Shown: in pieces, positions 10,939 through 48,599 of the stretch
How the letters are laid out: each line of letters begins with the position of its first letter
Numbering within the stretch: the stretch's first letter is position 1
NCBI GenBank assembly: GCA_000004985.1
Contig: GG738855.1
Source of the DNA: Naegleria gruberi
Taxonomy: Eukaryota
DNA: 64,000 bases
Reading direction: 5' to 3' (one strand)
Notes under the pieces: model-generated
What the model was told of the DNA's origin: nothing
Seen by the model: the letters and a program-made list of their open reading frames with translations, nothing else
Database searches by the model: none
Translations under genes and position numbers: made by a program

Positions 10939-13002
10939 TTGAATTTTCATGGATTTGTGGAGACTTCATCAATGTTTGAGCAAGAAATTAATAATAGGCT
11001 TCTTAACGAGAGACCAACATCAGCAAGAATTGTGGATAACAAAACAAAAATCATGCCAGAATCTCAGAGAAATCAAATTAAAGATGAAATGATGGGTGCT
11101 TTGGATTCTTACCTCTCAAAGGACTTCTTTTATCTGTGGGAAAAACATGTTTCTCCAATGTTAAGATCTAGTGATCCAGAGACCATCAAATTGGAATTCT
11201 TTATTAGACTTTATTTTGCCACAGTTCCATTTAGACACAATGATAAACAAGAACAACGCAAATATGCAGTGGAATTTAAACAATATTTGGATATGAAAGG
11301 AGCTATCTTGTCAACATTTTTTGATTTACTCCCATATTATGCCTTTCCTTACATGCCAGATCCATCTAGCCATCCTTCTTTTGCTTCAATGTACCAAGAC
11401 AAATGGAAGCAAGATTTATTTGATAAGGTTAAGAGCTATCTCGATGTCACCTTTTCAAGAAGTATTGAACAACCATATCTCCATTCAATTGTTAATAATA
11501 TTAACACAACAAGTTCTATTAATGTTGCAAACTCCATTGGTAAGTGTCTAACAATACCTATAATACAAACATTAACAGCTGGGTTAGGTAATAACGACAA
11601 ACAAGGTTTGGAACAATATAAAAAAGAAATGGGAAGCTACATGGACATCGTTCAAGAAAAATATAGAGAATTATATGGATTGAGTGGAGATTTATTGAAA
11701 GCAATTTCAGGAGTTATGAAAGGGAAGAAGCTCAATAAGCAATTTTTGGCTGTAGTCCAAGACAATCTGAGCTCTCTTCATATTGATGAAATTCTTCCTT
11801 CAATGATTGTAAGTGGGTAATTTGTATTATTTTTTAACTTCGATAGCCACGTAATGATCATATTGAGGATCATTCAGCAACATTCGTTTCTCTAGATTAC
11901 CAAAAATTAAAGTTATTCTTACTCAAAGAAACAAACAACCCAATGATACCATATGTATTACAGGCTCTTAGATGGAGAATTTCAAAATCACAAAATACTA
12001 GAACAAAGATTAACACCTTAAAGACAATGATTTACTATGATTTGTTTGGAATTGTAAACAATGAGAAGGTAAGTTGAAATGGAAAACCTTTAAATTGGCT
12101 AAACATCGGTTTTCCATAGAAAATCTTACAAGCTTTGCTTTTTTCAAAGGATGAAATGGTTGTGGAATATACATTGAGGTTAATTAATATTTTCTCTACT
12201 GAGAATGTTGGTGTGGTTTATTTGACAAAAGATTTAACTCAAAATACCATCATTATGGATTTAATTCAAATTTTGGAATTGGAGCGCTCTGACTCAATTA
12301 TCAGACAAAATGTTGTCTCCATTCTTCAAAAACTAAGCGTGAAATCAAAGCCTCAACAGTAAGTTTCAAATCAATACAAATTGTTTATTAACCCCTCAAT
12401 TTAGACAAATGGTCAATAATGATTTAATTGATATAGTGTGCAAAATTTTATCCAATCCTGAAAATTGTGGAGATTTCACAACTGAGTATGGTGTTTCACT
12501 ATTGATGAATTTATGTCTAGGAAAGGTGTCAATTAGAGCCTGTGAACGATCAGATATTATACCTGTGTTGATGGATTTAATTCAACACGAAAGTCCACAA
12601 GTAAGAACTTACGTCCATGGAACACTTTACAGTGTGCTTAGTTTTTCAAATGTCCTTAAACAACAGGCAAGAGATCATGGTTTGGAGGATAAACTTAAAA
12701 TTATCAGAAAAATGTCAGAAGATGAGCTTTCCAAACAAATTGCATATATTCAAGATGTGCTGTCAAAGGAAGAGACAAGTGATGAGGATAGTAATTTTGA
12801 TGAGGATGACGAGGAAGATCTCAATGCTCTCCTTATGCAGGATGTAGAAACAGACGAAATGGTGGATGGAGAACTAGAGGAAGAAAGCTTGAGTTGGACT
12901 GAAGATCAACAGATAGGAGAAGAGTTATTGTGCAACTTCTTAGCATCAAACGAGCAAGCAGTTGAAGAAAGAGAATTATTGAGATCAGCAAAAATTGAAT
13001 AA
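10939..13002 (+). CDS. ARMC9: LisH/armadillo-repeat protein ARMC9 (ciliary basal-body protein), four exons
   Basis: ..FFYLWEKHVSPMLRSSDPETIKLEFFIRLYFATVPF..YLDMKGAILSTFFDLLPYYAFPYMPDPSSHPSFASMYQDKWKQDL.., ..VLQALRWRISKSQ.. and ..TTEYGVSLLMNLCLGKVS..VRTYVHGTLYSVLSFSNVLKQQARDHGLEDKLKII.. match ARMC9 along its length. Exons about 10939-11809, 11847-12068, 12130-12358, 12405-13002. Introns 37, 61 and 46 nt, all with GTAAGT donors. Confidence 0.8.
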
Positions 13003-13090
13003 TTTATTAAGGTTTCTTTTGTTTTAATGATGAAATCTCCTGATTTAGTCTTGAACTGTTATTTGTAAATAATATGTGTGGTAATTAAAC

Positions 13091-13486
13091 TTACATTTCT
13101 TTTTTGAACTCTTCGGTCACCAACTTGAACTCGTGTGTTAATTTCGTTATTGTTTCTGTATGTACTTTTATCAACTTGTCATATTCTTCTTTTTTTACGT
13201 ATTCTTCCTTAGGTTCGTGTTCTTCCACTGATGGTAAAGTTGGAGTTGTTGATGGTGTTGTTGGGAGATCTAGTGAAGGCTCTAAATTATTACCATTCTC
13301 GTTGGTTGTATCTACATTTAAATGATCAATCTTCCGTTTTTTCTTTTCGGGATTTGTGCTATCGGATTCGGAATTTGTGTTATCCTCTGATGATGATTGT
13401 TCCATTGTATTGTTGTTTTCATTTGTTGTTGCTGGTGAATCCCATTCCGCCATGATGTCTCGTTCAAGTTCTGTCAAGTCAGCCAT
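13091..13486 (-). CDS. Small acidic protein with basic KKKRK patch (putative nuclear), function unknown
   Basis: ATG-initiated 131-aa ORF MADLTELERDIMAEWDSPATTNENNNT..PEKKKRKIDHLNV..EEHEPKEEYVKKEEYDKLIKVHTE... Stop overlaps a GTAAGT, so a short alternative 3' exon (..KKEIQD) is possible. Confidence 0.4.
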   Translation of the reverse strand: MADLTELERDIMAEWDSPATTNENNNTMEQSSSEDNTNSESDSTNPEKKKRKIDHLNVDTTNENGNNLEPSLDLPTTPSTTPTLPSVEEHEPKEEYVKKEEYDKLIKVHTETITKLTHEFKLVTEEFKKEM

Positions 13487-13592
13487 TTTTTTTGAATTTA
13501 TTTGATGGCTCTGTTATTATTAAATTAATCGAATTATGCACGAATACTAGTATTAAAAATAATTTAAATTAATATATTTATTGTACATGTTT

Positions 13593-13959: not shown

Positions 13960-14508
13960 GTTTTTTCAAATTCCGATGCTAAATTCCTTAATCCTCTCGT
14001 TGTTGATGAAGAACAAATTGTGTTACTAGTGAAATACAACTGGTTGATTTTTTTTGAAAACTTGATGATTGAACAGCCTCGTAAATATTGAGGCGGTAAA
14101 CGGTTTTAAATAAAACCTCTCATGACGTAAATTATTTAAATAAGAAGTGAATGTGTGTTTGATGTTTAATAACAACCTTGTATCAAGAGTTGAAGATTTG
14201 GATTCAATTGGATAGCACAAATAAACTTTCAAGGTTTTTTAAGGGAAGAGGCAGACAAAACCGCCCAAAGACTATCTATTGCCGTTATGTTTGCCGCCAA
14301 AATTTGAATGCAAGAACGTTAGGAATTGTTTTCAATTTCACAAAACAATAGCAAAAAAAATTACATCAACTCCCCACACCACAGAGGATCTGCTGTAGTT
14401 TTCTGTACACAACTAATTACTAACAAACAAACTAATATACAAGGAGTCTGGGGTTATTAATTTAATCACACACATTCTTTATCTTTATACATAGAATACA
14501 ATACGAAA

Positions 14509-17500
14509 ATGAGCAGCGATACCATATCAACTACAACAACATCTTCATCATCATCATCTAACTTTACAACACAATCCGGAGTGAATGTGCAAGTGCTTTT
14601 AAGATGTAGACCACCTAATGATAAAGAAAAGGGACAATCCATCTCTGTTGAAACCTTACCATATATGAGAAAGGAATTAAAGATTCATCAAAAACTTGTT
14701 CATGGAAAGGAAATAACAAAAACATTTACTTTTGATAGAGTGTATGGTCCACAAACAACACAAAAAGAATTCTTTGAAGAATCCATCAAATCCATTGTTG
14801 ATGAAGCCTTGGATGGTTTTAATTGTACAATTTTTGCTTATGGTCAAACCAGTTCTGGTAAAACATACACGTAAGTTTATATCAATTAATCTTAATTATT
14901 AATTACAAATAATTACAGTATGGAAGGAAGAAGAGATTCTAATGATGTGACTGACACACACTCTGGTGTCATTCCAAGAAGTATCTACCACATTTTCAGA
15001 ACATTGGAATCTAATTCAACTGAATACACTGTTAAAGTTAGTTGCATGGAATTATATAATGAAGAATTACAAGATTTACTCACAGATAGACAGAATAAGC
15101 TCAAAATATTCGATGATAGTACTGGTAGAAAGGGTACTGTTGTAGCTGGTTTGGAAGAAATCAATGTTAGGGATGCCTCTCAAATCATTTCCATTGTTGA
15201 GGATGCCCAAAAGAGAAGACAAATGGCTGAAACTAATTTGAACAAATCCTCAAGTCGTTCTCACTGTATTACTACAATTACTATTCATATGAGAGAAGTT
15301 AACGATGAAGGTGAGGAATTTATCAAGACTGGTAAACTCAATCTTGTAGATTTGGCTGGTAGTGAAAATATTGGTAGATCAGGAGCTGTTAAACAAAGAG
15401 CTAAGGAAGCTGGTATGATCAATCAAAGTTTGCTCACCTTGGGAAGAGTTATTACAGCTCTCACTGAACACAGCCCACACATTCCATACAGAGAATCAAA
15501 GTTAACTAGAATTTTACAAGACAGTTTGGGTGGTAAGACAAAGACTTGTTTGATCGCCACTATCTCTCCATCAATTTTGTGTATTGAAGAAACTTTAAGC
15601 ACAGTCGATTATGCTCACAAAGCTAAGAGTATTAAGAACAAACCTGAAGTCAATATGAAGGTTTCTAAGGCCCAATTGATCAAGGAAATGTCTTCTGATA
15701 TGGAAAAACTCAAAGCTGAACTTAATGCCCAAAGACTCAAGAACGGTATTTACATGGCACCTGAAATTTATGAAGAAACTAATAGAAAATTGAAAGAACA
15801 AGAAGCCACCATCAGGGATATGGAAGATCAACTTCAACTCAGAGTCAAAGAATATGAAGAATTATCCATCCTCTTTAAAGAAAAAGAGAGAGACCTCCAG
15901 AGAGAAATAGCTGAACATGGTGAAACTAGACAAACACTTTCTTCTACAAGAGATACACTGAAGAGAACAGAAATCGATCTCAAGAATACCAAGGTTGAAT
16001 TGGGAGCCACTAATTTTGTTCTTGGAAAGACTCAAGAAACCGAGGAACAACTTTTATCTCAAGCTCATTACCTTTTGAATAATCTTAAAGAAAGCATTTC
16101 TGATGTTGATGGATTCATTTCAAAAGTTGACAGAAAGGCTAAAGTTGAAAATGAAAATCAAACATTGATTTCACAATTCAAAAATACGATGGATGAAAAG
16201 TTTGGTAGATCAGTTGATGAGGTTCATCTACTCCAAGCCACTTTTGAAGCACTTAACAGCTCTGCCAAGACATCTGTTTCTGAATTCATTATTGAAAAGG
16301 ATGCTCATACAAAGAATGTTAGAGATCAACTTGTATCCATGTCTGACCTCTTTTCTACATCACAAAATGAAATCATCCAAATGATTGCCAACAAATCTGA
16401 TAGCCAATCCAAGACTTTGGACGATTTGTCTTCCACCAATCAATCATTTGAAGCTACTCTCATCAATAACATGATGACTATGAAGAATGCCTTTGAAACA
16501 TCAATTGGTATCATTAACGAACAAATTGTTGCCCAGAGAAGTGAAATGCTCAATATTCACACTTTCTTTGTTGAAACTCTTACTAGAAACACAAAGTTTT
16601 TGGAAAATTTTGCTGGTAAACACTCTGAAGTGATGAAGGGTTTGAAACAAGAGATTGAACAAACTGTTACTGACCATATCAATCAATCTAATAACAATAG
16701 TCAAAAATTGAATGAAATGCTCAAACAACAAAAGCTTCAAAATGCATCCCTTAAGCAAGAATTGTTGAAGAATTTTGAAAGCCTTATTGACAATACTTTT
16801 ACTTCACAAGAAGTAGAGTTAACCGAGAATGTACAAACAATCCAAAAGTTCTTTGACTATTCTGTCAACTCTGTCCAACAAATGGATGGATCTGTCAAGA
16901 AGAACACTGATGAATCATTGTTCAATTTGGAAAAGATCAAGACCAATCTAGGATCTAATCAACAAGATGCAATTCAATCCATGACCAAGTCAAGAATTAA
17001 CATTGAAAATTTGATGGATAATATTTCAGAAGAAAATACCAACCTTACCACCAACATTAATTCTTTCTATAACAATACTAAGAAAGCTATTGGTTCTAAT
17101 ACTTCATCTCTCGATTTGTTTGTTAATACCTCAAAGCAATCCCAAAAGGTCTTTATGGATGAATGTTCTGCCTCATCATGCAAGAGCATTTCTACCTTCC
17201 AAGAATACCACAATCAATTGCAACATCGTTCTGACAACTACCAAAATCGTCTATCAATGTTTGCTAACACTCATCTTGAACTTCACAATTCTCAACATGA
17301 AAAGGTTAATGAATATAAGAATCAATTTGTTTCTGAAAGAATGAATGATATGAAGCGTAGCTTGGATACATTTAGTTTGAATACTGATCAACCAACAGGA
17401 ACAACTCCACAAAAGAAGAAGAGAAAGCTTCCTGAATCTCTTCCAAAAACTCAACCAAGACAAGAATTGGTTGAATTGTACAAATTAACTTTACCAGAAT

Positions 17501-17781
17501 CATTTGAAGCTGAAGAAGTTTGTTCTGTCTCCACACCAGACTCTGATAATATGGAAGATGTTGAAGCTGATTCCATTAGTGTGTCTAGTAACAAGGAAAA
17601 TGTTGATGACAATAACTTATCACCAATAGCAATCGTACCAACTGTAAAATCTATCAACATTCCAATGAAGAAAGTGAGCTCTGAACCTACTATTGTAAAG
17701 AAGCCAATTGTTAAAAAACCAACTATTACTAAGGTCTTGAAAAATAGTGCTCCAAATTTTGGGGTTTCTTCTTTCAGATAA
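14509..17781 (+). CDS. KIF11: Kinesin-5 (Eg5/BimC-type bipolar mitotic kinesin), two exons
   Basis: Exon 1 14509-14870 ends ..GQTSSGKTYT; 48-nt GTAAGT intron 14871-14918; exon 2 continues MEGRRD... Motor motifs SSRSHC, LNLVDLAGSENIGRSGAVKQRAKEAGMINQSLLTLGRVITAL, HIPYRESKLTRILQDSLGG. Long coiled-coil stalk. C-terminal BimC box ..DQPTGTTPQKKKRKLPE... Confidence 0.9.
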
Positions 17782-17891: not shown

Positions 17892-20256
17892 TTATTGTCT
17901 CCTATTTACACTCTTCTTCACCTTGGAAGCTTTCTTATAGGCAAGATAATAGTTAAGACTCTCTGGGTCTTCTTGTTGAAGTCTTTCAATTTGGAGCTTT
18001 TCGAATTTTTCACCCTCATCCAACACATCTTCTTTTCCTTCCTGATCTAATCCTCTGTATCTGGAACTTCTAGATGATTGAGTTGGTCTATTGTCTTCTT
18101 CTTCCATGTACCTTTCGTCGTAATAGGCTTGGAAATCAGCTACAAGAGATTGTCTCAAAGTTTCTAAGGCCTTCTCAAGATAATCAATTTCGGATTTCAA
18201 CATCTTTCTTTCCTCAAAGGATTGCTTGTATGTTTCCTTTCTTTCCTTAATGCTTTGGAAGAATAGCATTTCTTCTTCATCCACAATATCATCTCCCACT
18301 TTATAATAATTATAGCGAACTTTAAAACAATTTCAACAACTTACAATGTGCATTTTCAACTTGTTTCTTATCAATCTTGGTCTTTAAATTATCAATATCT
18401 GCCTTGATATCATTAAGCCTTTGGGTTACATTCTTGAAGAGAGATTTCTTTTCCTTCAAGGAAGCAGAATTTTCCTTAATACTTTCACTTAATTGTTTTC
18501 CAACTGTGTGTTTAAACTCCTCAAAGGCATCGTTTCTGGGCATGATAATCTTGCTGGCAGTTTTTGACCTTTCAGTATCAGGAACAACAGCTGAGGTAGA
18601 TCTTTCTTCCCTTGCTGATAAAACTGTAGCTTTCTTTGTTTTCTTTTGGAAATCAACATTTGGTTTTGCCTCTCCAAATCCAAAACCAGTCTTACTTTCA
18701 ACTTCACCAACTCCATTTTCCTCATGAATTTTCTCTTCATGGATTTTTCCTGCAAAATTGGAAGCTGGAGCTGTTTGCTGTTTTTCTCTGTTAGAAGCTG
18801 AATGAATAGACTCTGGTTCTGTGAAAGAAGAGGCCTCTTTCAACAAGGTTTTGAATTGTACGAATATTTCCTTAATTCTTCTGATGTTTTTAATTTCCAA
18901 CTCTTCCACTTCTCCATTTACATAGCTTCTAATTTCCTTTCTCAATTCAACCTTTTGTTCCTCGGTGTATGGGTCATAATTTGCTTGATTGATTCCTCTC
19001 AATTGATCGTGCATGGATAGTTCTTGTTTCAGCTCTTTAATTTCCTTTTCATACTTTTTAATGAGAGCATCTGGGTTCATATGAACATTAATCATTGCTT
19101 CGTTGGAAACTCTCATCATTCTAGTGGCGAATTTAAGCGTACCAATTGTTTCTTCAATATGTTGTTCTTCTCCCCATACGTTCGCAATCATCAAAGTTTT
19201 GCAATTACCTCCTAAAGAATCCTTTAAGAAATAGGTAAGCTTGGATTGTCTGTAAGGGATGTGTTCTCTTGTTGGATTTCCCAATGCAATAACAACCTGT
19301 TCCAAAAACGAAAGTGACTTGTTGATGTATTTTGCTTCAGTGAGAACAAGTCCACTAGAGTGAGTTTTAGAAACTCTTTCACTACCAGCCAAGTCAACCA
19401 AATTCAACTTGGATTGAACGGTTTGACCTTCTGATTCAACTCTACTTCTACTTTCCAAATACATTGTAAAAACACAGTGAGATCTTGTTGAGGCCTTGTT
19501 CAATTGATGTTCACAGATAGCTCTGTTTGTTTCACCTTCAAAAAGCATTGATAAGGCTTCTTCCTCACTATTAACAATGTGACATGACAATCCTCTAACC
19601 ATGATAGTTCCCTTATTATCCTCCATAATAACCATATTGTCATCGTATGCATCATTTTTAGCTTTTGCCAATTGAGTGTCACTAATATCAGATAATAAAT
19701 CAAATAATTGTTCATTATAGATTTCCATATAAGAAACTCGTAATGTAAATGATTTTTCAGGATAATTTGACATTTCGGCAAACACTTGTTGAATTGCTCT
19801 TGGTATTAAACCTCTATTCTTATAATTGTTGGCAGCTCCAATCATGGTGTAGGTCTTACCTTTTTGATTGTTTCAATAATTAGAAATTATAAACTCAAAA
19901 TACAAACCTGAACCAGTTTGACCATAGGCCATCACAGTTCCATTATAACCTTCAAGGAATGATTTTGTAATATCATAACAACATTCATTAAATACTGTAT
20001 CTTGTGATACATTATGAAGTGTTTTATCAAATTTGAATGAATAATCTTCCTTCTTTGTTTCCAAATAATTTACATTTCCCGATTGTTTTCCAGATCTTCC
20101 CTTATTCTTAATCTCAATGCTCTTTTTTGATTCATCAAGAACAATCACATCCTGAGCAAAGAAAGCAGTCGGTCTAAATTATCATTGTATTAATAAATTT
20201 ATAAAATTCTTCACGTACCTCGTTCTGACACAAACTTGTACTGGGGTGTTGACCAT
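17892..20256 (-). CDS. KIF9: Kinesin-9 (KIF9/KLP1-like axonemal kinesin), four exons, 741 aa
   Basis: Exons 20219-20256 (MVNTPVQVCVRTR), 19908-20173, 18345-19859, 17892-18298. Introns 45, 48 and 46 nt. Motor ..YGQTGSG|KTYTMIGAANNYKNRGLIPRAIQQVF..VSYMEIYNEQLFDLLS..SRSHCVFTMYLESRSR..LNLVDLAGSERVSKTHSSGLVLTEAKYINKSLSFLEQVVIALGNPTREHIPYRQSKLTYFLKDSLGGNC.. closely resembles KIF9 as I recall it. Confidence 0.8.
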
Positions 20257-20389
20257 TTTGTTTTTTTAAAATTTAATTTACAGTTTTAAAATTTGGCGCC
20301 ATTTCAAATTGTTTCAAAAAAAGCAAATAAGTATTATTACATCGAAGAACAAATAGAAAGGTGCTTTGACAGATACAACATTGGTTTTA

Positions 20390-23155
20390 TTAGTTAAAGA
20401 AGAATGTAATGTCAGAGAATGTTTTTGGAGTTTGTGGAACTTTTTCAATTAGAGCATTTTCGATTGGAGAGTCAATGATGACCTTAAAGTCAGTATTAGT
20501 GAGATGCTTGGCAAAATATTTGAGAGATGGAATGGAGAGTGGAACATATCGTCTATCAGGGCAGTAGAGTACAAAATTAATGGAGGAGGAAGGTGAGGTA
20601 GCATCCTGTTCACTGTTTCCTGGTGCAGTTTGTTCTTCATTGTTGGTTGATGCTGGTGGTTCTTTCAAGTCCTTAAAGTCATCTTTAGAATCTTTGGTTT
20701 CCTTGGTTGGTTTTTGAGATGGTGAATCATTATTATTGGAAAGTGATTGATTTGGTGGAGATGAGAGAATATATCTCAAATTTTGTCTAATATTTGTCAA
20801 GACCTTTTTCATTTCGTCGTCTACACTCGAATTGAAGAACATGATTTTAGCCAAATTGAGGAAATCACCAATCTTGACGAAAATTGAAGGATCTGCTTTG
20901 TGTATCACATCTGAATCAGAAGGAATGTCATAGTACTTTTCCAAGAATGCTTGTTGCTTTGATCTATTTTGCTTGGTTATTTTAATTTCCAAAATCCAAT
21001 TAAGAATTGTCTTTTTGATTTGACTAGCTTTTTCTGATACTCCTTTGTATTCCTTAGTTTGTAAACATGAATCATGACCAGACATGATATCCAAAAATTG
21101 AGAAATGTGGCTTTCCTTTGATCTGACGTTATTGTTGATGAGAACCTGTTGTAACTTTTTTCTAATCTTGTTAATTCTCAAGTAGGAACTGACAATATAG
21201 GCACTGGCAAGCTCTGTAGAACTAATCTTGTTTCCTGAGGCATTAACATTGGCACTGCTCTTGGAAGCATAATCGAAAATTTGTGTCAAGAAGAAGTGAA
21301 TATAGGCAAGTTTGTACTGATGTTCGAATGGAGCTTCTTTCAAGTGCAAAATCAACTTTTCATGAATCTTGTCAAGAATATTTTCCCATATTTGAATCTT
21401 CTTTTCCAAACTGTATTCTTTAGTTCTGATAGGAATATCCAAGTTTGGATTCTTTCTTGGAGTGGTTGGTGATGAACCAGAACCGTTGCCATTGATTACT
21501 ACAAGACCAGCTCCTTGTGAAAGACTAGCTTGACGCATTTCTTCAAAGTTTTTCATGTCTTGTTGTAATTTGGCACGTTGTTTCATTTTGTTAATGGAAT
21601 CAGAGAAAATCTTCTTCATTCCAACAGTTGGAAATTCAGAAATTGATTGTTCTGAAACATCTGAAGTAGTGTCAAAACTCTTTCTGAACATGGAGGTTCC
21701 ACCAGTTGGAGTTTGAGGGGAAGGAGAAAGATAAGAACTCGTTGATGGACTTCCATACAAATTATTTCCAATACCATTTCCCATAGGAAGACCATTTTCA
21801 TAACTTGAAGGAGCAGAAGAGGAAAGTATGTCATTTGAACGACCAGCTGAATCATAGAGGATACTGTTTTGTTGTGAATTTTCGTCACTAACGCTTGAAC
21901 GTAATGAATCCATACTACCCATTCTTAAATGAGAACCAGCAACAGGTGACATGGTTGTGTGCACTCTTAATTCAAGTCTGTCATCATTGACTGGTGAGCT
22001 AGAGTAAGGAGAAGAACCCAAATAGGAATATCTGGTTGATGGTGAGGAGGAAATCATTTGCTTTCCCAATTCATGAATGGTTGGTGAAGAAGACAGCGCA
22101 GGAGAAGAACCAACACCCAAATAAACAGGTGGTGATTGAGAACTTGAACCAGCTCTAGAACGTCCACTTCCAGTAATCAACACGCTTTGACTACTAGGTC
22201 TGGTTTGAATTGCTATAGCAGTTGTAAGTTGTTGGACAGATGAATTCTCATTTTCTTCATCATCTGATGAAGAGGATTCTCTATTTTCCTTTGATTCATT
22301 ATTTGTATTATGAGCGAGTATTGCACTACTGATATCAGAAATATTATTTGAGAGTGCTTGAGTCGAGTGATCGTTAGCATTTGGTTCGGAAGAGGTACTA
22401 TTCATTGATGCATTATTACCACTACCATTGTTATCATTGCTAGAATCTGTCGATCCCTCAATTCTACCACTACTAGCACTATTATCACCAGAAGAAGGAG
22501 AAGTGGAAGAGTTTGCAGTATTAGTATTGACACCTTTCAATGCACCTCCTCCATATTTACCAAATTCCTGTTGCTCTTGATGATATTGTGAAACCTTACC
22601 ATAATAGACAACAGTTGCACTTCTTCTTTTCATCTTATCCAAATTGACAATTGATAAATCCACACCATGATAATGAGAAAGAACAGTTTCAACAACCTTA
22701 TCCAAATAATTATTTCTTTGAGTGACTGGATCTTCTACTGTCAAAATACTCAACAAATTATCCAATGATTTGTTTCCCTTCAATCTAATCATATAAAGTA
22801 ATTGAATGATGGATCTCAAATAGAGAAACTTTAATCTTTTTGTCTTCATGTGATTAAAAATCATATAAGTTAACTTGATGTATTCCATTTCATCACCATC
22901 ATTATAAGATCCATCATCACCATTCATCTTATCTAGTGCATGTTTAACTAACATGGATAAATATTGTGGTTGTGTCTGTAGTAAGTAGAATACAAATCCT
23001 ATATGTTGTAGTAAACGTTCTCGCTTTTCCCTTCTTAGGTTTTTAACAGTATCATCTTGTATTGAATTGGAATTAGAAACTTCCATAATGTTGGAACTTT
23101 CACTCTCCGAGAAACTCTCAAAGAGAGGATAAGAATTACTATTATTTTGTCCCAT
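20390..23155 (-). CDS. IQGAP-related RasGAP-like protein (GAP-related domain plus RasGAP C-terminal region), single exon
   Basis: 921 aa. ..FVFYLLQTQPQYLSMLVKHAL.. matches the IQGAP GRD stretch LFYLLQTNPQYLAKL; ..KFLYLRSIIQLLYMIRL.. follows. Long Ser/Asn-rich low-complexity insert. N-terminal MGQNNS fits an N-myristoylation consensus. Confidence 0.6.
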   Translation of the reverse strand: MGQNNSNSYPLFESFSESESSNIMEVSNSNSIQDDTVKNLRREKRERLLQHIGFVFYLLQTQPQYLSMLVKHALDKMNGDDGSYNDGDEMEYIKLTYMIFNHMKTKRLKFLYLRSIIQLLYMIRLKGNKSLDNLLSILTVEDPVTQRNNYLDKVVETVLSHYHGVDLSIVNLDKMKRRSATVVYYGKVSQYHQEQQEFGKYGGGALKGVNTNTANSSTSPSSGDNSASSGRIEGSTDSSNDNNGSGNNASMNSTSSEPNANDHSTQALSNNISDISSAILAHNTNNESKENRESSSSDDEENENSSVQQLTTAIAIQTRPSSQSVLITGSGRSRAGSSSQSPPVYLGVGSSPALSSSPTIHELGKQMISSSPSTRYSYLGSSPYSSSPVNDDRLELRVHTTMSPVAGSHLRMGSMDSLRSSVSDENSQQNSILYDSAGRSNDILSSSAPSSYENGLPMGNGIGNNLYGSPSTSSYLSPSPQTPTGGTSMFRKSFDTTSDVSEQSISEFPTVGMKKIFSDSINKMKQRAKLQQDMKNFEEMRQASLSQGAGLVVINGNGSGSSPTTPRKNPNLDIPIRTKEYSLEKKIQIWENILDKIHEKLILHLKEAPFEHQYKLAYIHFFLTQIFDYASKSSANVNASGNKISSTELASAYIVSSYLRINKIRKKLQQVLINNNVRSKESHISQFLDIMSGHDSCLQTKEYKGVSEKASQIKKTILNWILEIKITKQNRSKQQAFLEKYYDIPSDSDVIHKADPSIFVKIGDFLNLAKIMFFNSSVDDEMKKVLTNIRQNLRYILSSPPNQSLSNNNDSPSQKPTKETKDSKDDFKDLKEPPASTNNEEQTAPGNSEQDATSPSSSINFVLYCPDRRYVPLSIPSLKYFAKHLTNTDFKVIIDSPIENALIEKVPQTPKTFSDITFFFN

Positions 23156-31331: not shown

Positions 31332-32015
31332 TTTTTTTAAAGAGTGTCTACAAAGTTGGCGGGAAATATTGTATCATCGAAATTTGATCCATTTTGTATG
31401 ATCAACCAGGCTATTGATTCTGTGTTTCCGAAAGTTTATAAGATGGTGGTCCATTTGTGAAAATTATTGTCAAGGCTAAGTCCAAAATTTTTGAATTACA
31501 CGCTCAGTAATACTAACCCAAAAACCATTGGACTCACAAGCCAACTGCACTACAACACAGTTAAGCACTGACGAAACAATAAAAACAGAAGTACAAAAAC
31601 GAGACAACCAACCAACACAAGAAAAGAACAACACGCAGTCTAAGTGGGTCAAAGGAGGAGATAAATCACAGTTAATGTCCTGTCTAAGCAAACCAAACAA
31701 AATTTTGGAAGATTAGATTGAAGAATTCAATTGATAACCTATTATCAAGTAGTATTAAGAAGCATTTCTTAGGAGGACATATTCACCACTCTCAATAACG
31801 CCAGAGCAAAATTCAAAATGTTGGCTCTCGCTCAGCTTTCTTTTAAGCATTTTTGAGGACAAGAATTTTGTTTTTATCAAGTTTACAATAATATTGAAAA
31901 AGATATTGAAAGTGAAGGAAATCTCATTTGATCAAAATTGATTGAAGACGCACTAACTTTTACTCAACATGTACGAGTTTGTGCGTGCTCACAAACCCCA
32001 ACTAACCAACAAAAA

Positions 32016-36100: not shown

Positions 36101-37400
36101 TACAAGAACTTGACATTACAATTGACACAATTTTTCTTCATTTTCTTCAATGCATTTACAGGTACTTCATTGTATGAAAACATTTCGTTATCTACATTTA
36201 ACTTGATATTTACATCAGTTCCAGTTATTGGATTTGCTATGTTTGATAGAGATGTTGACGATGAAAATTCTCTTCAATATCCAGAGTTGTACACTTATGG
36301 TCAAAGAGATCACTATGTAAGTAATCAAATAATTTTCAAATTATTCTTAATAATTAATTAGTTCAACATTCCTGAATTGCTGATGTGGATCTTGAATGCT
36401 GTTTGGCATTCTCTTTGCTGTTTCTTTATTCCAATCATTTCTCTCGGATTTATGAACAGCGCTTTATATGAAGGTAAAATGGTATCTTTGGAAGAGCTTG
36501 GTATTTTGATCTATACTTGCATTATCATGTTAGTTAACATTAAATTAGCAGTAGAAACTTGGTAAGTTTATTTTCATAATTTTCCTAACAATGAAAAGTA
36601 CATGGAATTTCTTCAACTCAATCCTTTTATGGGGAAGTGTTGCTGTTTGGTTTTTGTGGACCATTCTTTACTCTGTATTTTACTGGGTTGTTCCAGATGC
36701 AGGCTTTTTCCCATTCAACAGCTTATTGGGATTAGGAAGAAAATATTATTTTAATTTTTACAATTCATCAGGAAATATTCTCTTTTGGTTCACTCTTGCA
36801 TTGGTCTTAGTTGTGGCATTAGGAAGAGATATTACTTGGAAGAGTGCTGTAAGAATTTTACCATGGACTAAACAATTATATCACGTAATTCAACCATACA
36901 GTAGGGCTAAGACGATAGCTCCAAGAGAAGTAGTTGAACAAGAATTTGATTTACAAAAATTACAATCCCCTCTCAGAAAACCATACGACAAATTCAATCG
37001 TATTGGTATTTATATTACACCTGGTGCTCCAATTGAGGAAATTGAAAAATATGAACCAAGAGCTCTCGATAGGAAGAAGACACTCAATGAAACACGATTT
37101 GGTACTGGTTATGCCTTCTCACAAAGAGATGGAGGTGAAAAGGATTTATTAGAGGAAATTTATTCCCCTATTAATAGAGTTGGTCTTATTGAATTGCAAA
37201 CTCTTGACAAGTTGGATATGAAACAGCCAGAAATTGCTGAAGAAGAGAATACAGAAAACCAATCAAGAAAGCAAATCAAGAAGGAACTCAAATCCAAACT
37301 CACTTCATCTGGAAAGAAAAAGAAAAAATCCAAATCAGAAGTTGTGGAGGATCTTGATGATGAAATTATCACATCATACAACCCAAACTTTGACCAATAA
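33188..37400 (+). CDS. P4-type ATPase (phospholipid flippase), five exons, ~1346 aa
   Basis: Exons 33188-33362, 33408-33534, 33580-36316, 36363-36562, 36599-37400. Introns 45, 45, 46 and 36 nt. ..[38 protein letters not shown]..|[10 protein letters not shown].. is the P4 N-terminal signature. DKTGTLTQN phosphorylation motif, [25 protein letters not shown]10 region ..[10 protein letters not shown]|[13 protein letters not shown]... A poly-Lys/acidic insert sits in the N domain. Confidence 0.9.
35596..35656 (+). repeat. Purine-only (AAG/AAA/GAA)n microsatellite inside the P4-ATPase CDS, encoding poly-Lys/Glu
   Basis: agagagaaagaagaagaaaaagaagaaaaagaagaagaagg.. translates to [21 protein letters not shown]. 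Confidence 0.8.
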
Positions 37401-40830: not shown

Positions 40831-40987
40831 CGGGCTTCTTATTTTGGGATTTCAAACTTCTAGTTTGAAACCTCCTTTCTTTGTTAAAGATACCGTAAAT
40901 GAAAATTTCTAATTAGTAAACTTCCTTAAAAGCAAATTTACCGTACTTTTAACTATTGATCAACGTGTTAAAGTGTATCACCTTAAT

Positions 40988-43309
40988 ATGGATTTACTGT
41001 ACAAGCTTGAGCCGAGTTGTTGCGTGGGTAGAGCTCAATCCACGCACCAACTCACCTCAAGAAGTTCTTCATTCATAAAGCAGATTACCTTGGTACACAG
41101 AATTAAAAAAATCGAAACACTGAATCAAATGAGCTCTTTTTCACAATTTGTAATAAGCTCTTCAACAGGACCTTCTTCTGTCTGCCGCTGTCCTACCTGT
41201 GCCTTTACACAGTATAATCCATTTGTGGCTGCAAATGAAGGCAGATATTCCTATGTCATGAGATGCATGGTACACATGTGTGTTACTCATAATGTATCTC
41301 CACCTGTTACTTTTTCCACTGATAATAATACTATAAGGAAATGCATAATTGCATGTAATGATACCGACAACCTCCATGCAGAAGCAGCTCGAGAATATGC
41401 TCTCATGGATATTGTGAGAACTCTTGGACATCATGTCAACCCATGCATCTTTGATCTCTACTCCAGCTACCTATTTGAGGTAAACCACAGCTGGGCCTTA
41501 TCATTATGGTTGGAAGCAACCAGATTCATTGCCTCAATCAATATAACAATCTCTAAAAAGAGTATTCTTATTCTAGAAAATATGTTCGAAATGATTTATT
41601 CCAAATTAACAGATAATGAAGATTATGAACACCAACCAGATGATCTTCAATTCGTTGACAACATTTGCCATATTTTCTATAAAAGTAATCACTTCCCAAA
41701 AGAACTCATCTCCAAGCTCTATCTGATCGTTGATTGTGATAATGGGATGGAGCTCGTTCCCTTACTCAAACAAACTGGTACCTATCTTGAATATTTAATA
41801 GCAAGGAATGACCCTACTCCAGTAAAGGAATTGGATTGTGATATACTGAAATGGAACTATCAAATCGTTCCACCAGATGATCTGTCAGAGCGTAGACTTT
41901 ATCGTTTGCTGTACTTTAAAATACGGTTAGGCTTACCAAGTTCTGTAACTGACTTGTTTAATTTCATGTTTGTTGAGCAATTGATTGGTGACTCACCAAT
42001 TAAGGAATTGTTGGTTGATAACTTTGAAACATACATTCAATCCCATCCAGAGCATGCAGAGGCTATCAGAGCTACTCTCCTTGAAACCACTATTACCTAT
42101 GCTTATGAGGGTAAATGGGATGTGGCTGGATTGAATATAAGAATTTTGGGAAAGATGGGGAGAGAATATAATGATTTGGTCCATTTGATCCAGTCGTGTG
42201 TTAACCATTATAGACCTAATGAACTGAATGAATTCTTTACGGAATTCTTGATAGATGTTCTTTTCCTTTTTTATAAGGAGAAGCATAATTTTTCACTTCA
42301 GCAAATACAAGCAATAGAAAATCTCTTCAATCTCTTTACGGAACATCTTACGCCTCTTGATTCGTGCTTTGACCTTTCTGAAAGACAATATATAGAAATA
42401 TTGGATTTAGCGTTGTCATTCAAAGAGAACAGGTCCCACAGATACCAAGGAATAACAAAAAAACTAGTTTCTGCATTCGAAAGTGCATTACACTGTTGTG
42501 TGGAAAGCACAGAGTTTCTATTGCAGCTGTTTTGTGAAAGGTGGGCTAACAGCTTGGATGACCATACTCAAGCTTCTAAATTCCATGAGCTATTCGAAGA
42601 TGACACCATTTGGAATCATGCTCTTAGCTCAGAAATCCAAAAAACAACTATATCACGTATTCGAATCCTGAATAAGCTCTTATCAAACAGACCTCTTCTT
42701 GATTTATTCCTACCACAAGAAACTGCAAGAGATCATCTTGGTTACATTTTAGGTGTCACCTCTCAATCTAATGTTGTTGGTTATCGTAAGAACAGTCCAC
42801 ACTATCAAGAGTTTCTGAGGTTTGGTACTTTAGTGAACAGTGTTCTGGAATTAATTGATCAAGACGTTTATAACGGAGCTTTACCTTATGAGATTTACAC
42901 CATATCAATCTACTTTTCAATTTTATGTAAATTCTATGCAGAAGAAGCCAAAGATCAAGAGCTTCAATCCTTTGACAGCTTTTTAAAAGTAATTCTAGTA
43001 ACTGCTGATGAAAATGGTTATGACCATAGTGTTCTCCACACTGTCAAACTATTAACTCAAAAGAAGGTTTATCTTGAAAATTCTGAAGCAACCTTGACTC
43101 TCTTTGGGATTTGTAAACTTTTAAACCTGATTAATTATGTTATGAACAATGATACCAGTGATTCATATGATTTTTCCGAAACTTTGAATTACTATCAAAA
43201 TCAGCCATTAATGAGAGATGCTCCACATCAAAACACAATTCAAAATCTAATTGAAAAGCATCAATTATTGAAGAATTTATCTCAAAGCAATCGAATGACT
43301 GATGAATAA
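40988..43309 (+). CDS. Hypothetical protein (~774 aa), single exon
   Basis: Long uninterrupted frame starting at ATG 40988 (MDLLYKLEPSCC..; the ORF track begins at GTG 40973). Predicted helical, no recognisable motifs. Confidence 0.5.
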   Translation: MDLLYKLEPSCCVGRAQSTHQLTSRSSSFIKQITLVHRIKKIETLNQMSSFSQFVISSSTGPSSVCRCPTCAFTQYNPFVAANEGRYSYVMRCMVHMCVTHNVSPPVTFSTDNNTIRKCIIACNDTDNLHAEAAREYALMDIVRTLGHHVNPCIFDLYSSYLFEVNHSWALSLWLEATRFIASINITISKKSILILENMFEMIYSKLTDNEDYEHQPDDLQFVDNICHIFYKSNHFPKELISKLYLIVDCDNGMELVPLLKQTGTYLEYLIARNDPTPVKELDCDILKWNYQIVPPDDLSERRLYRLLYFKIRLGLPSSVTDLFNFMFVEQLIGDSPIKELLVDNFETYIQSHPEHAEAIRATLLETTITYAYEGKWDVAGLNIRILGKMGREYNDLVHLIQSCVNHYRPNELNEFFTEFLIDVLFLFYKEKHNFSLQQIQAIENLFNLFTEHLTPLDSCFDLSERQYIEILDLALSFKENRSHRYQGITKKLVSAFESALHCCVESTEFLLQLFCERWANSLDDHTQASKFHELFEDDTIWNHALSSEIQKTTISRIRILNKLLSNRPLLDLFLPQETARDHLGYILGVTSQSNVVGYRKNSPHYQEFLRFGTLVNSVLELIDQDVYNGALPYEIYTISIYFSILCKFYAEEAKDQELQSFDSFLKVILVTADENGYDHSVLHTVKLLTQKKVYLENSEATLTLFGICKLLNLINYVMNNDTSDSYDFSETLNYYQNQPLMRDAPHQNTIQNLIEKHQLLKNLSQSNRMTDE

Positions 43310-43633: not shown

Positions 43634-46600
43634 ATGTTAGGCAAGAAACAAGGTTCGAAAATTAATATTCCCCTTCTTCAGAACCTTCCCTCCCATAATA
43701 ATATTGTAAATAGTTATAGTTCTAGGGATCCAACATCGACGGAGAGGAGGAAATTAAACAAACTTTCAACAAAATCGAGAATTAAGGAAGACAATTACAA
43801 TTTGGAACGAAAAATTCTTGTGGATGATGAAGATTTCAATCTTGTCACGGCACCAGCTACGTTTGTACAAGTTATCGAAGAAGAAAATCTCGATAACAAT
43901 GCTAAAAACCAACTATTGGTTCCTAATAATCAAACAAATACTTCTGATGATTCGGAAGATAAGAAAAATGGAACAAGACAAACACGAAGAGTCATGAAGA
44001 AGTCTCCTACAGCTTCAACAGCCATCAGCAAATTTTCTCTTGTACACGGAAAAGTGAAAGCTATTGCATCTATTCAATTGGCTGGTAAAATTAGGAGAAA
44101 GGAATTAAATCAAAAAGTTAAACAATTAAGTGAATATGCTGATCACGATCTTGAAGAAATTCAGAAAGGAAAAGAAAATAGAATTTCACCATCATTCGAA
44201 GAATCTGAGGAAGATGATCAAGCGAGAAGAGATACAGATTATGCTAAATATTTACAAGATAAAAAGAAATTGGAAAAGAAACCTATTGAAGATGATATTA
44301 ATGAAAAAATTAAATTGGAGGATATTAGAAGATTATTTGAAAATAGTTCCGAAGATGGACTTACAGAAGATGAGTTCATCTCTGGAATGAGTAGATTATT
44401 AGGATCTGGAAGAGATAGAGACGAATTTAAAGCTCTATTTGCTCGCATTGATGCCAATGCAAACGGAAGTGTGGATTGGAATGAATTTTCAACCTATGTT
44501 TTGCTAGGTTATGAAGGTGCTAAAAAGATGAAAAACAATTTTGAGGATAAGATGTTTGTAAAACAAACATACCCTGATATCAATACTAAACCAATGTACC
44601 ATAAAGGAAACATTACAAGAATAACAGTGGATGAAAAGAGACAGAGATACTATACAGCAGGAAATGATGGTTTAGTGAAATCGTGGTATTATGAAAATTT
44701 AATGTTTGACAGAAATATTTATTATTCACCGAGCAGTATAATTACAGATATTTCATATTTGCCCTTACATGACGAATTATGTATCTGTAATGTTGACAGA
44801 GTTGTTAGTTTTTATGATCTCGATACTTTCACTGTAAGAAGAGCATTTAAAGGTAGACAATATTATAATAAGGGAATTTATAATATCATATCTAGTAGAG
44901 CAACAGCAGACGATACAACAATCAACAGTCTCATGAGCACAATGGAGGACGATACCAATCCATCTGCCAACTCAAAACCAAATAGACAAACCCAAAAACT
45001 CTCCTCTTCACTACCATCACTTTCTAGAAGAACTTTCAAAGAGTATGCTCCTATTAATATGCCTTCTCGCCTTAAAGATCCTAATCCTCTAATTGAAACT
45101 CTTTCTCCACTTCCTAATAGTGTGAAAATTCACAAGCAAATAGAGAATATGAAGAATGATTATTTTACGAAACCATTCCATATTAGTGATTCAGTTCAGC
45201 TCACTGTTTTGGAAGATTTTATAGACACTCCTACATGTATGACTGATTTTTCTAAATTCTTTGTTGACAGAAAGATGAAAGAAGAAAAACGGAAAACAGG
45301 AGTACTATCACTTCCAACCATAATCAATCAAACTGGGGATTATGTTGGTAGCTATTCAAAACAAGGTATTGAAATCATTAACCCTTGCTTCATTATGTTT
45401 GGAATGGATTCTGGTTATGTGAAATTATTCGATTGTACCACTACCTATACGGGAAGTAGAGTTCAAGAATCTATTCTACCTGAAAAGAAGTGGAAACTTC
45501 ATAATGGGTGGGTTTCAAAAATAATCTATGCACCAAGTATTGACTGTATGATAACGAGCTCGTATGATAAGACCATCTCTGTAACCAATTTTGATGATCC
45601 AAAACGTGGAGGAAGAATATTGCAAGGCCACTCAATGGAAATATACTCTGTTGATTGGTGTGAAAGACATAAATTAGTAGCATCATCCGGAAGAGATAAG
45701 GAAATTAGATTGTGGAATCCGTTCATTCCATCCTCTTTAGTAACACTTTGTGGTCATGAAAAGCCTGTAATAGAAGTCAAATTTAATGTTGACGATAGAC
45801 AAATCATATCTTATGATACTGGAAAAACAATCAAAGTTTGGGATTTAAGAAACTATAAGCTTGTGCAAACAATTGAAGATATCAAGTCTAAACCTACAAC
45901 TGGATCTGCTGATTCTCATATCCAGTCTTTCACTGGTAAATACCCTGGATCAGCTATGATTTATCACCACAAAAAGAGTAGAGTTATAACAGCCAGTCAC
46001 AAAATGAAAACATGGCCAATGAAACGAACACTCACAGAATTTTCATTAGAATACAAGGGTCACAAATCAGCTGTTGTGGCTTGTCTTTACAATGATATGT
46101 TGAGACAACTCATTACATGTGATGAGAAAGTTGTTTGTGTATGGGATGCCACAACAGGTAGGTTACTATTCAAATTTGCTGTTCAAAACAAAATTTCAAA
46201 TGCTGTTCTTGATACTCTAAAACGAAGATTGATCATTTCATCTCACAATGGAGAGGTTTCATTGTGGAATTATATCAATGGTCAGCAGTTATTAGTTTGT
46301 TATTCTCCTCCATTAGAGATTGACGAGATCATAGAAAAACCAGAATACACAGAACCAGCTTATAATGACCTAGCAACTCCAAGAGGTGTTATTGATCAGG
46401 AAACAACTCTTCGATCTTCTTTGGAAGAGAAGAATATTTCATCACTTGATTATAAGGGCCTAGCTTTTGTTTTCAAAGAACTGAGAGGAATTAGATCGAT
46501 AGTCGCTGGAGGTAATAACAAGAGAGTAGTATTTTGGAAAGACGATGATCAGGACTCTTCTGTAGAGGATTTCTCTCATAGCTCAATGAAATTTCCAAAA

Positions 46601-48599
46601 GACATTAATGTAATTCGTCAGTTTAGCGATTATTTGGCAGTGGGGCTTGACAATGGATCAATAATGACCATAGACGCAATCAATGGTGAATTGAAATACT
46701 CTTCTCTCTATACACAAATACCAAATTATACCTATGACATACTTTACTTTATCAACAAGCAGAGAAGAGTTAAAGCAGTACAAACTGATAACCTTCCTCA
46801 ACCAACAACTAATTGTCAAATTGAAGATTTAATGTTTTTAGAGAATAGAGATGGACTTCTTGTTTCCGCCAGAAGTAATGGAATAATATCATTATGGGAA
46901 ACTAGAAAATCCTTAAGTCATCTTTACTCATTCCAAACCACACCCAATGGAGAAGCAATTTCCTGTATTTCATGTAGCAGTACCAATGAAACGATTGTTC
47001 TTGGTGACTCTAGAGGATTTATTTATGTTTATGATTTAACTGATTTGCCAAGAGCCAAATCCTTAGAATTTACAAAACCAGAGAGTATTGTTATACAAAA
47101 GAATAATATTAGACTTGTAAAATCTTTTAAAGCTCATACTGATTCAGTTACAAGTTTGACTTATCTTTCTGGGTTTAACCTTATTGCATCATGTGGCTTA
47201 GATTGTACAGTTGTACTTTTTGATTTGTATGGAATTCCAATTGGATTTTTCGGACAAAAGAATGAGTGGAAAGTTGGTTTGGATTTTACCTATGGAAGAC
47301 ATGAAATAACAGATCTCAAACATGTTATTAATCTCGATCTTTCAATGTATAGAAATGATGATGCAAAAGATAGTGAATTTGATCAAGTCATCAAAAGTAA
47401 AGATGAGCTCAACAAGCTCAATAAGCAATTAGCAAAGAAAAATAATGTAAATAACAGTAACAATACCACCAGTTCCAGTAATAATGGAAGCGTTACTCCT
47501 CAGCCAGATAATAATATGAAGTTAACTATTAACGATCAACCGAAATCACCTGTACCATCAGGTTCCCAAAAGTATAATCATAGCACTGCCTCAACTCCAG
47601 TTCAGAGAAGATCACTAGTTAAAGAGAATTCTAGATCTAATCTAATGTCTCAAAGTCAAACACCACAACCATCAGCAAAACAAAAGACACCAACACTTCT
47701 TGTTTCCACATCTCCATCAGATCAACAACCAGTACAAGCTAAACCTCTCCTTAGTGTATCAGACCCTAACAAACAAGCCAATTTCCTTACTGTAGACACA
47801 AAACCGAATGAGAAGAAGGGAGGAACACTTTCCACCTCTCAGACAAGATATCAAAAATTGCGTGAATTGGAAGATAGAGTTTCAAATCTCATCGAGAAAT
47901 CCCTCAAAGAGCAAGGAGCTGTTGACCAATCCACAACACCAAGAGAGGCTGGGGAAGGGGAAAACTCATACGAAGACTCTAAAGAATCTTCAGAGAGAAA
48001 AGCTCTGGAAAAGTTTCAGAAAACATTACTTTGGTCCCAAGCTCATGATACTAATTGGATAGATAGAGTGAGAACACTAATTGATGTTGATGATTATTCA
48101 TTTGAAAGTAAGTTTTAAGTGATTTTGTTGTAGATAACACCATAATTAAGGAAATATTGAGGATTTCATGGTAGATCACAAGGTTCCCAATACATCACTT
48201 CTCCAAACCACTGTTTCCACAGTAGCTAAACCTGTACCATCTACTCCCTCTTCTAATAAGGGTAGGAACCAAGAAAAGAATATTGTTTCGAGTTCTGTGG
48301 TTGTTGTTGAGCCAAACAAAACAAGAAGTAGATCTATTGCAACTGCTCCATCTGAATTGAATTCGTCAAATAATACCACTCTTCCATCTCCTGTTGCTCA
48401 TCATTCCCCTGCAACTACCTCACACTCTGATAAGTTACCTCACATTTTCAAAGGTAACATGACAGATTCTGCAACAGAGAGAAGATCTCAAGCAAGTTCG
48501 ACATTTGACCAGACGGACAGAGATTTTGAAAAGAAAATCAATAGTTTATTTTCCTCTTTAGACATAACCATTAAGGAGATCAATAAAGTGCTTCTCTAG
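43634..48599 (+). CDS. EF-hand plus WD40-repeat protein (WDR49/EFCAB8-like, cilium-associated family), probably two exons
   Basis: N-terminal EF-hand loop ..FARIDANANGSVDWNEFSTYVLL... Many WD repeats follow (..AGNDGLVKSWYYE.., ..KTIKVWDLRNYK.., ..KVVCVWDATTGR.., ..GEVSLWNYINGQ..). Ser/Thr/Pro/Gln-rich tail. The main ORF ends at 48118, but GTAAGT at 48108 and TAG at 48172-48174 define a 67-nt intron that joins in frame to ORF 48168..48599, which has the same composition. Confidence 0.55.

Follow-up and report, generated by a model that had tools for sequence, protein, structure and literature searches.

Naegleria gruberi is the classic model for the transition from amoeba to flagellate. Its amoebae have neither centrioles nor flagella and build both de novo in about 1 h (PMC4819266). 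Four ciliary protein families described in other organisms bear on the locus analysed here. ARMC9 is described as a Joubert-syndrome protein of primary cilia and as a protein of a ciliary-tip module. Kinesin-9A, represented by KIF9 in mammals and KLP1 in Chlamydomonas, is confined to organisms that build flagella (PMC2867816). IC140 (IDA7) of Chlamydomonas and DNAI3 (WDR63) of human are intermediate chains of the inner dynein arm I1/f. In the fourth family, Chlamydomonas FAP337 is an EF-hand/WD protein that is reduced in a FAP57 mutant, Tetrahymena CFAP337A/B sit on the CCDC96/113 coiled coil and contact the stem of dynein d, and WDR64 is found in (bovine) sperm, with WDR49 proposed as its counterpart in epithelial cilia (PMC10504270, PMC11779644 and PMC6761771 jointly). 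We analysed a stretch of 64,000 nucleotides of N. gruberi DNA (assembly GCA_000004985.1, contig GG738855.1; hereafter the window), for which an initial annotation had described four motile-cilium genes between positions 10939 and 48599. All four are present, one from each of these families, but "motile-cilium" is too narrow a term for ARMC9. We conclude with high confidence that they are four separate, independently transcribed, single-copy genes of the flagellar apparatus, lying within 38 kb amid unrelated housekeeping genes, and that their closeness reflects chance together with inherited local gene order (Table 1).

The dynein intermediate chain is annotated as XP_002680045.1 / NAEGRDRAFT_57343, a protein of 717 amino acids (aa) that is 100% identical over 99% of our query; the 9-residue gap between this entry and the open reading frame (ORF) can be explained by translation from the second ATG (31304). 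Compared with solved structures, the chain matched IC140 (7e-72), DNAI3 (3e-69) and WDR63 (1e-67), followed by two further IC140/IC3 chains (7e-64 and 6e-60), and these five IC140-type chains, from five axoneme structures, scored 206-246 bits. Outer-arm IC2 chains gave E-values of 1e-30 to 5e-22 and aligned to the last ~200 residues only, outer-arm IC1-type chains gave 1e-6 to 2e-5, and the cytoplasmic intermediate chain gave ~5e-6. In bits, IC140/DNAI3 reached 245, compared with at most 109 for the outer-arm IC2 chains and at most 40 for outer-arm IC1, IC138/DNAI4, dynein-2 and cytoplasmic chains. Because IC140-type chains were the best matches by far, we assign the protein to the inner-arm I1/f chains (IC140/DNAI3) and reject an outer-arm identity, whether IC1/DNAI1 or IC2/DNAI2. 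The "outer-arm" label given to it before is thus corrected to inner-arm, and the protein is still predicted to be axonemal and specific to motility. NCBI and UniProt list it as no more than "hypothetical" or "uncharacterized".

The spliced KIF9 protein is identical to XP_002680042.1 / NAEGRDRAFT_64648. Its best matches among solved chains were KIF9 (1e-156, 526 bits), the 776-aa kinesin chain of 7n61 (2e-128, 433 bits), which we take to be a model of the Chlamydomonas central apparatus, and the human KIF9 motor (7e-109), whereas the next kinesin family reached only 4e-64 (220 bits). Pfam found the Kinesin motor (2e-100) and a complete KIF9 tail domain (PF23735, 2e-25, 89.9 bits with a cut-off of 31.9, profile positions 1-139 of 140), and with these scores the identification as a KIF9-type kinesin holds. 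Within the best 120 matches, every protein named by family was KIF9, KLP1 or a generic "kinesin family 6/9", and none was KIF6 alone. The organisms named in the same 120 matches were chytrids, Neocallimastigomycota, animals, ciliates, Thecamonas, Andalucia and Heterolobosea, all of which belong to groups with known flagellate stages.

The EF-hand plus WD40 protein is identical to XP_002679936.1 / NAEGRDRAFT_57344 and is listed in UniProt as D2V737, "Uncharacterized protein FM145". The FM label presumably refers to the flagellar-motility genes catalogued in the N. gruberi genome paper, with Fritz-Laylin et al. 2010 reportedly the source of this naming. A tblastn comparison with the N. lovaniensis orthologue identified a 143-aa ORF (48168-48599) as the final exon of this gene, joined to the first by a 43-nt intron. 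Single-sequence searches with the whole protein were swamped by generic WD40 proteins, with WDR64 and a Tetrahymena "EF hand protein" prominent among the matches, and single-sequence searches with its non-canonical parts returned generic EF-hand and WD40 matches only, so a profile was needed. The profile, built from six homologues, placed WDR64 first (9fqr_No, 4.8e-88), collinear over 660 residues (chain positions 271-931) and the EF-hand region, and gave 1.6e-64 for the Tetrahymena protein (8tid_Z). The sole comparable score came from a repetitive cyanobacterial WD40 protein that matched six times over the same profile segment.

The alignment with fly WDY was also collinear and included the EF-hand motif DWNEF. 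In the N. gruberi protein the EF-hand lies directly N-terminal to the WD40 region (motif DWNEFSTY). Pfam EF-hand_7 matched residues 242-289 with 22.4 bits, below its cut-off of 30, the region matched calmodulin-like and troponin C chains at 1e-5 to 1e-4, and eight residues (F269, I272, N275, D281, W282, E284, F285 and Y288) were invariant across the six homologues, fly WDY included. A predicted structure of residues 200-1299 had low confidence, with a mean predicted local distance difference test (pLDDT) score of 58.7 and a predicted template modelling (pTM) score of 0.41. Foldseek with this model again placed 9fqr_No (3e-34) and 8tid_Z (2e-33) on top, with template modelling (TM) scores of only 0.25-0.36 and other tandem propellers five orders of magnitude behind. 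Given the pLDDT of 58.7, we count the fold search as supporting evidence for the family. Judged from profile and alignments, the protein is assigned to the CFAP337/WDR49/WDR64 family, in agreement with the WDR49/EFCAB8 type proposed for it initially. It evolves fast for an axonemal protein (50% identity between N. gruberi and N. lovaniensis, compared with 74% for IC140 between the same two species and 80% for KIF9 against N. fowleri), carries long low-complexity inserts and has a different genomic place in N. gruberi and N. lovaniensis (locus L002, 10001-15727).

The ARMC9 gene was modelled by reading the sequence around two ORFs, which placed four GT..AG introns of 38-51 nt. The two ORFs (10939-11820 and 12409-13002) already carried Pfam CTLH_Armc9 (3e-34) and ARMC9_ARM (1e-34). 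In the spliced model these two ARMC9-specific domains scored far over their cut-offs, CTLH_Armc9 (PF23138) with 1e-33 and 116.8 bits (cut-off 27) and ARMC9_ARM (PF21050) with 2e-33 and 115.4 bits (cut-off 27.3), which bears out the family call. ARMC9_LisH (PF21051) reached 24.2 bits (E 3.9e-5), below its cut-off of 27.3, and hinges on the model of exon 1. The ARMC9 model had no match among solved structures, and the exact 676-aa protein had no identical entry in the protein collection. We read this as meaning that the annotated ARMC9 model differs from the five-exon model or is absent, and exon 1 is therefore the least certain part. As the described protein functions in immotile primary cilia too, ARMC9 is a general ciliary-tip/basal-body protein and no specific mark of motile cilia.

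We consider it extremely improbable that one or more of the four genes is a non-ciliary paralogue, that is, a generic WD40 or armadillo protein, a cytoplasmic dynein intermediate chain or a transport kinesin. Such a reading could draw on the high scores of the WD40 part of the EF-hand/WD40 protein against generic WD40 proteins, on the EF-hand and ARMC9 LisH matches that fall below curated Pfam cut-offs, and on a preprint that reports non-ciliary roles of mammalian KIF9 (10.1101/2024.04.03.587821). Against it stand the family-specific Pfam domains above cut-off in ARMC9 (two) and KIF9, a lead of more than 130 bits for IC140-type chains over every other dynein intermediate chain, and the agreement of profile and fold search in putting two solved CFAP337-family chains first. 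The UniProt label FM145 and the KIF9 matches confined, where organisms were named among the best 120, to groups with flagellate stages argue in the same direction. The best matches fell into a non-ciliary paralogue family, an outcome that the initial annotation had raised as a check on its calls, for none of the four genes.

By analogy with the described proteins, the four products would act at different sites of the flagellum. ARMC9 would belong to a ciliary-tip/basal-body module with TOGARAM1, CEP104 and CSPP1 that controls the growth of axonemal microtubules, KIF9 would act at the central pair and tune the beat, and IC140 would serve as the WD40 scaffold in the base of the two-headed inner dynein arm I1/f. 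For the CFAP337-family protein, which combines an EF-hand, WD40 propellers and a helical tail, the expected place is the CCDC96/CCDC113 coiled coil, next to the nexin-dynein regulatory complex; there it would touch CFAP57 and a single-headed inner arm, possibly as a calcium-sensitive hub. Each gene has its own promoter. Since Naegleria amoebae have no flagella, all four are expected to be silent in amoebae, and they would be switched on during the ~1-h differentiation, as data on their gene classes suggest: flagellar genes are transcribed de novo in differentiation (PMC4819266), and five of six inner-arm and three of four outer-arm dyneins are differentiation-specific in Naegleria (PMC10802493).

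The title of the initial annotation hinted that the grouping of the four genes was meaningful, a suggestion that neither their arrangement nor gene order in relatives supports. The gaps between them measure 4.9, 8.9 and 12.3 kb and hold 2, 4 and 4 unrelated genes, and no pair among the four is adjacent or has a common promoter. We estimated how often such a grouping would arise by chance by setting the ~27 genes of the window against a genome of ~16,000 genes (PMC4819266), with the total of cilium genes set at 300, 600 or 1000. The probability of four or more cilium genes was 0.0015, 0.017 and 0.085, respectively, around a mean expectation of 0.5-1.7 per 27 genes, and between ~1 and 54 such windows are expected genome-wide (11-54 with 600-1000 cilium genes).

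Gene order in relatives was compared for CFAP337 and IC140 in N. lovaniensis and for ARMC9 and KIF9 in N. fowleri. The N. lovaniensis IC140 orthologue lies on contig PYSW02000030.1 in a block with the membrane protein, TBP, the flippase and SF3B1, and the CFAP337 orthologue lies on contig PYSW02000034.1 with wholly different neighbours. N. fowleri keeps KIF9 and kinesin-5 as a tail-to-tail pair ~7 kb from TBP, and no ARMC9 was found in the 10-kb flanks on either side of its KIF9. KIF9 and IC140 thus share an old common neighbourhood that has since been rearranged, and ARMC9 and CFAP337 are tied to it in N. gruberi only. With two of the four genes unlinked in relatives, the grouping resembles coincidence combined with the usual conservation of local gene order.

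Four observations weigh against this interpretation. A narrow set of cilium genes (~300 of 16,000) makes four in 27 nominally unusual (P ~0.0015), KIF9 and IC140 are also separated by ~10-20 kb in N. fowleri and N. lovaniensis (judged from the TBP to RCC1-like gene run common to the two loci), KIF9 of Acrasis kona directly follows SF3B1, so part of the neighbourhood is old, and an E2F-like promoter element, described below, is common to three of the four cilium genes. The excess over the mean expectation, the KIF9-IC140 distance kept in three Naegleria species and the position of KIF9 beside SF3B1 in Acrasis would also suit a selected flagellar neighbourhood, in which closeness aids joint switch-on in differentiation, for example through a common chromatin domain. 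We regard such a neighbourhood as very improbable, because none of the four genes adjoins another or shares its promoter, the constitutive TBP, SF3B1, eIF3c and flippase genes and the mitosis-specific kinesin-5 intervene, the N. lovaniensis CFAP337 orthologue lies elsewhere among unrelated neighbours, ARMC9 is missing from the 10-kb surroundings of N. fowleri KIF9, and 11-54 such windows would occur by chance with 600-1000 cilium-related genes. We therefore retain chance and inherited local order as the explanation, and the co-location of the four genes should not be taken as a cluster.

A search of the promoters brought up a different candidate for what some of these genes have in common. GGCGCC and CCCGCC boxes caught the eye, and the textbook E2F consensus, TTTSSCGC, was then used to test them. 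This pattern occurred 6 times in the window compared with 1.17 expected, a count that none of 100 shuffles reached. Each of the 6 matches was at most 250 bp upstream of a start codon, although such stretches account for just 9.7% of the window. They belong to ARMC9 (two sites), KIF9, IC140, kinesin-5 and a gene of no known family at 5800. The core SSCGCCAA was likewise found 6 times (0.4 expected), with the sixth match at 60632-60639 between genes at 60479 and 60856, and it alone of 1680 permuted patterns of the same composition had more than 3 matches in the promoter zone. Sites were carried by 4 of 5 microtubule-related genes and 2 of 22 others (hypergeometric P 0.004, post hoc).

Similar sites are present in relatives. 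Upstream of the ATG, N. fowleri KIF9 has CGCGCCAAAA at ~155 bp and TTTTGGCGG at ~50 bp, and N. fowleri kinesin-5 has GGCGCCAAA and CCCGCCAAT within ~85 bp. When the regions upstream of IC140 were aligned from N. gruberi, N. lovaniensis, Willaertia magna and one ENA metagenome assembly contig, a T(T/C)CCCGCC block was the only conserved island besides an A-run before the ATG. An E2F-like site also lies upstream of CFAP337 in N. lovaniensis and none upstream of CFAP337 in N. gruberi; the MAFFT alignment of these upstream regions was too poor to tell if the N. gruberi CCACCAAA is a decayed form of the N. lovaniensis site. De novo k-mers common to the upstream regions of the four cilium genes did not rise above shuffles. 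A CCAAT box was rejected as the identity of the motif, with CCAAT in only 3 of ~14 sites.

The element in three of the four cilium genes points to co-regulation through individual promoters and not through position. We tentatively propose, as a possibility that we hold to be well below even, that a putative E2F-type element (SSCGCCAA, often TTTSSCGCCAA), located 5-220 bp ahead of the start codons of these genes, is part of the switch that turns on transcription of the microtubule gene programmes in Naegleria. E2F, DP and pRb have been reported in Excavata (PMC4862756). According to a 2025 review, Naegleria has no RFX, FOXJ1 or XAP5, and the transcription factors of cilium genes are unknown in Naegleria, Chlamydomonas and Tetrahymena (PMC12183034). 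Drawn from ~150 kb of sequence, the element is a lead and not a result. If true, it would have a counterpart in the E2F4/5-Multicilin programme that vertebrate multiciliated cells use, and as a concrete hypothesis on the regulator of Naegleria cilium genes that can be tested genome-wide, the conserved site may outweigh the main finding.

Table 1. Features of the window and E2F-like sites in related loci. Positions refer to the window unless a locus handle is given.
Feature	Position	Strand	Details
ARMC9 gene	10792-13002	+	5 exons: 10792-10889, 10935-11808, 11847-12068, 12120-12358, 12405-13002; 676 aa
KIF9/KLP1-type kinesin-9	17892-20256	-	4 exons: 20256-20219, 20173-19908, 19859-18345, 18298-17892; 741 aa
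Predicted inner-arm I1/f dynein intermediate chain, IC140/DNAI3/WDR63 orthologue	29151-31331	-	single exon; 726-aa ORF
Predicted CFAP337-family gene (FAP337/WDR49/EFCAB8/WDR64/WDY)	43634-48599	+	2 exons: 43634-48107, 48151-48599; 1640 aa
Kinesin-5 (Eg5/BimC type)	14509-17781	+	2 exons: 14509-14870, 14919-17781; 1074 aa
Introns of ARMC9	10890-10934, 11809-11846, 12069-12119, 12359-12404
Intron of kinesin-5	14871-14918
Introns of KIF9	18299-18344, 19860-19907, 20174-20218
Intron of CFAP337-family gene	48108-48150
Large ORF without Pfam domain	51285-57016	-	1772 aa
Large ORF without Pfam domain	40973-43309	+	778 aa
Large ORF without Pfam domain	20390-23155	-	921 aa
Large ORFs without Pfam domain	5800-7648	+	234+383 aa
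Two E2F-like sites, TTTGCCGC and TTTGGCGCC	10714-10734	+	65-78 bp upstream of ARMC9 start codon
Near-palindromic E2F-like site, TTTGGCGCC	20292-20300	.	36 bp upstream of KIF9 start codon
E2F-like site, TTTCCCGCCAA (longer form TTTCCCGCCAAC)	31356-31366	-	25-28 bp upstream of IC140 start codon
E2F-like site, TTTGCCGCCAA	14290-14300	+	~215 bp upstream of kinesin-5 start codon
E2F-like site	5760-5770		40 bp upstream of ATG of gene at 5800
E2F-like sites in relatives	L003 (N. fowleri) 9840, 16152, 16180
E2F-like site in relatives	L002 (N. lovaniensis) 9815
E2F-like site in relatives	L004 2989
E2F-like site in relatives	L007 1721

The window as a whole is AT-rich (~34% G+C), eukaryotic and rich in long ORFs, with ~27 genes. 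The ORF at 48635-49438 (minus strand) is identical to N. gruberi XP_002680046.1, which lies on a 613-kb contig, and three exact matches to N. gruberi proteins came from the two spliced models (XP_002680042.1 and XP_002679936.1) and one further protein of the window. The non-cilium genes encode eIF3c, kinesin-5, TBP, a membrane protein, a small-molecule methyltransferase, a P4-ATPase flippase, SF3B1, a DnaJ protein and a sterol C-methyltransferase, together with several proteins without a detectable family. Genes such as eIF3c, TBP, SF3B1 and the flippase are interleaved with the cilium genes, as the phrase "next to housekeeping genes" in the initial annotation implied. Pfam found no domain in the unannotated ORFs (921, 334, 232, 778, 1772 and 439 aa, and two ORFs at 5800-7648), and the 1772-aa and 778-aa ORFs had no match among all solved chains, axonemal ones included. 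An assembly gap at 4392-4903 (512 N) breaks the ORF at 3686-5614, which leaves the gene model across the gap incomplete. The flippase ORF (33605-36361) carries a run of twelve lysines from an A-rich tract at ~35500-35600, followed by an acidic insert, in the cytoplasmic domain of the P4-ATPase. All nine modelled introns are very short (38-51 nt), with GTAAGT, GTATGT, GTACGT or GTTTGT at the 5' end and AG at the 3' end (mostly TAG, with AAG three times and CAG once).

Kinesin-5 was assigned by its Pfam Kinesin motor and the kinesin-5 tail domain Microtub_bind. In Naegleria it is mitosis-specific (PMC10802493), and as a mitotic protein it is not counted among the cilium genes of the window. It lies tail-to-tail with KIF9, with stop codons 110 bp apart in N. 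gruberi, 57 bp between the called genes in N. fowleri (locus L003, 10001-16102) and ~100 bp in an ENA metagenome contig (locus L008, 160-5721). The 3' ends of the two genes may overlap, which may lead to antisense interference between probably mutually exclusive programmes. Acrasis kona, for which we know of no flagellate stage, keeps a full-length KIF9 with the tail domain (54% identical; locus L005, 3001-5203). Other papers report that this species retains flagellate-type tubulins, and the title of a 2025 paper speaks of cryptic flagellate stages in Heterolobosea.

The block of TBP, membrane protein, IC140, flippase and SF3B1 (20390-40830) is kept between N. gruberi and N. lovaniensis, and its TBP and membrane-protein end was seen in N. 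fowleri. The 921-aa ORF at one edge of this block is 86% identical to N. lovaniensis over ~200 residues. The gene adjoins KIF9 in N. gruberi and its orthologue adjoins SF3B1 in N. lovaniensis, a change of place that suggests an inversion.

The finding as such is already known, since publications cover the organism, the catalogue of its flagellar genes and the transcriptomes of its differentiation. That the sequence comes from a non-metazoan that builds motile axonemes, as the initial annotation deduced, is correct and textbook knowledge for N. gruberi. The co-expression studies proposed for such loci have already been carried out, with Naegleria differentiation profiled by microarray and RNA-seq (PMC4819266, PMC10802493, PMC12183034). 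The gain lies in naming three proteins now listed as "hypothetical" or "uncharacterized", with XP_002680045.1 as the inner-arm I1/f chain IC140/DNAI3, XP_002680042.1 as KIF9 and XP_002679936.1 as a CFAP337-family protein.

Compared with the FM catalogue and the differentiation transcriptomes of N. gruberi, the present finding adds nothing, the EF-hand/WD40 gene being FM145 already; the comparison with described proteins is more informative. ARMC9 resembles the human Joubert-syndrome protein and Tetrahymena ARMC9 in having LisH, CTLH-like and ARMC9-type armadillo domains in the same order, and differs in a LisH match slightly under the Pfam cut-off. KIF9 shares the N-terminal motor and KIF9-specific tail domain of the central-apparatus kinesin-9A proteins (mammalian KIF9, Chlamydomonas KLP1) and is 40-46% identical over nearly its full length to KIF9 of chytrids and marine invertebrates; apart from a low-complexity insert between coiled coil and tail domain, it shows no notable difference from them. 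The dynein chain aligns with Chlamydomonas IC140 (IDA7) and human DNAI3 (WDR63) over residues 24-436 and 337-687 of 726, including the C-terminal WD40 propeller, but is shorter than known IC140/DNAI3 proteins (717-726 aa compared with 809-1024 aa) and lacks approximately the first 110 residues of the human protein. The CFAP337-family protein resembles FAP337/CFAP337A,B of Chlamydomonas and Tetrahymena, WDR49/EFCAB8/WDR64 and WDY in placing an EF-hand ahead of the WD40 region and in having the same two solved chains on top by profile and by fold. At 1640 aa it is much longer than known members (~1000-1080 aa): the N terminus is extended by ~200 residues, the WD40 region contains long loops of low complexity, and a tail of ~400 residues is rich in serine, proline and glutamine.

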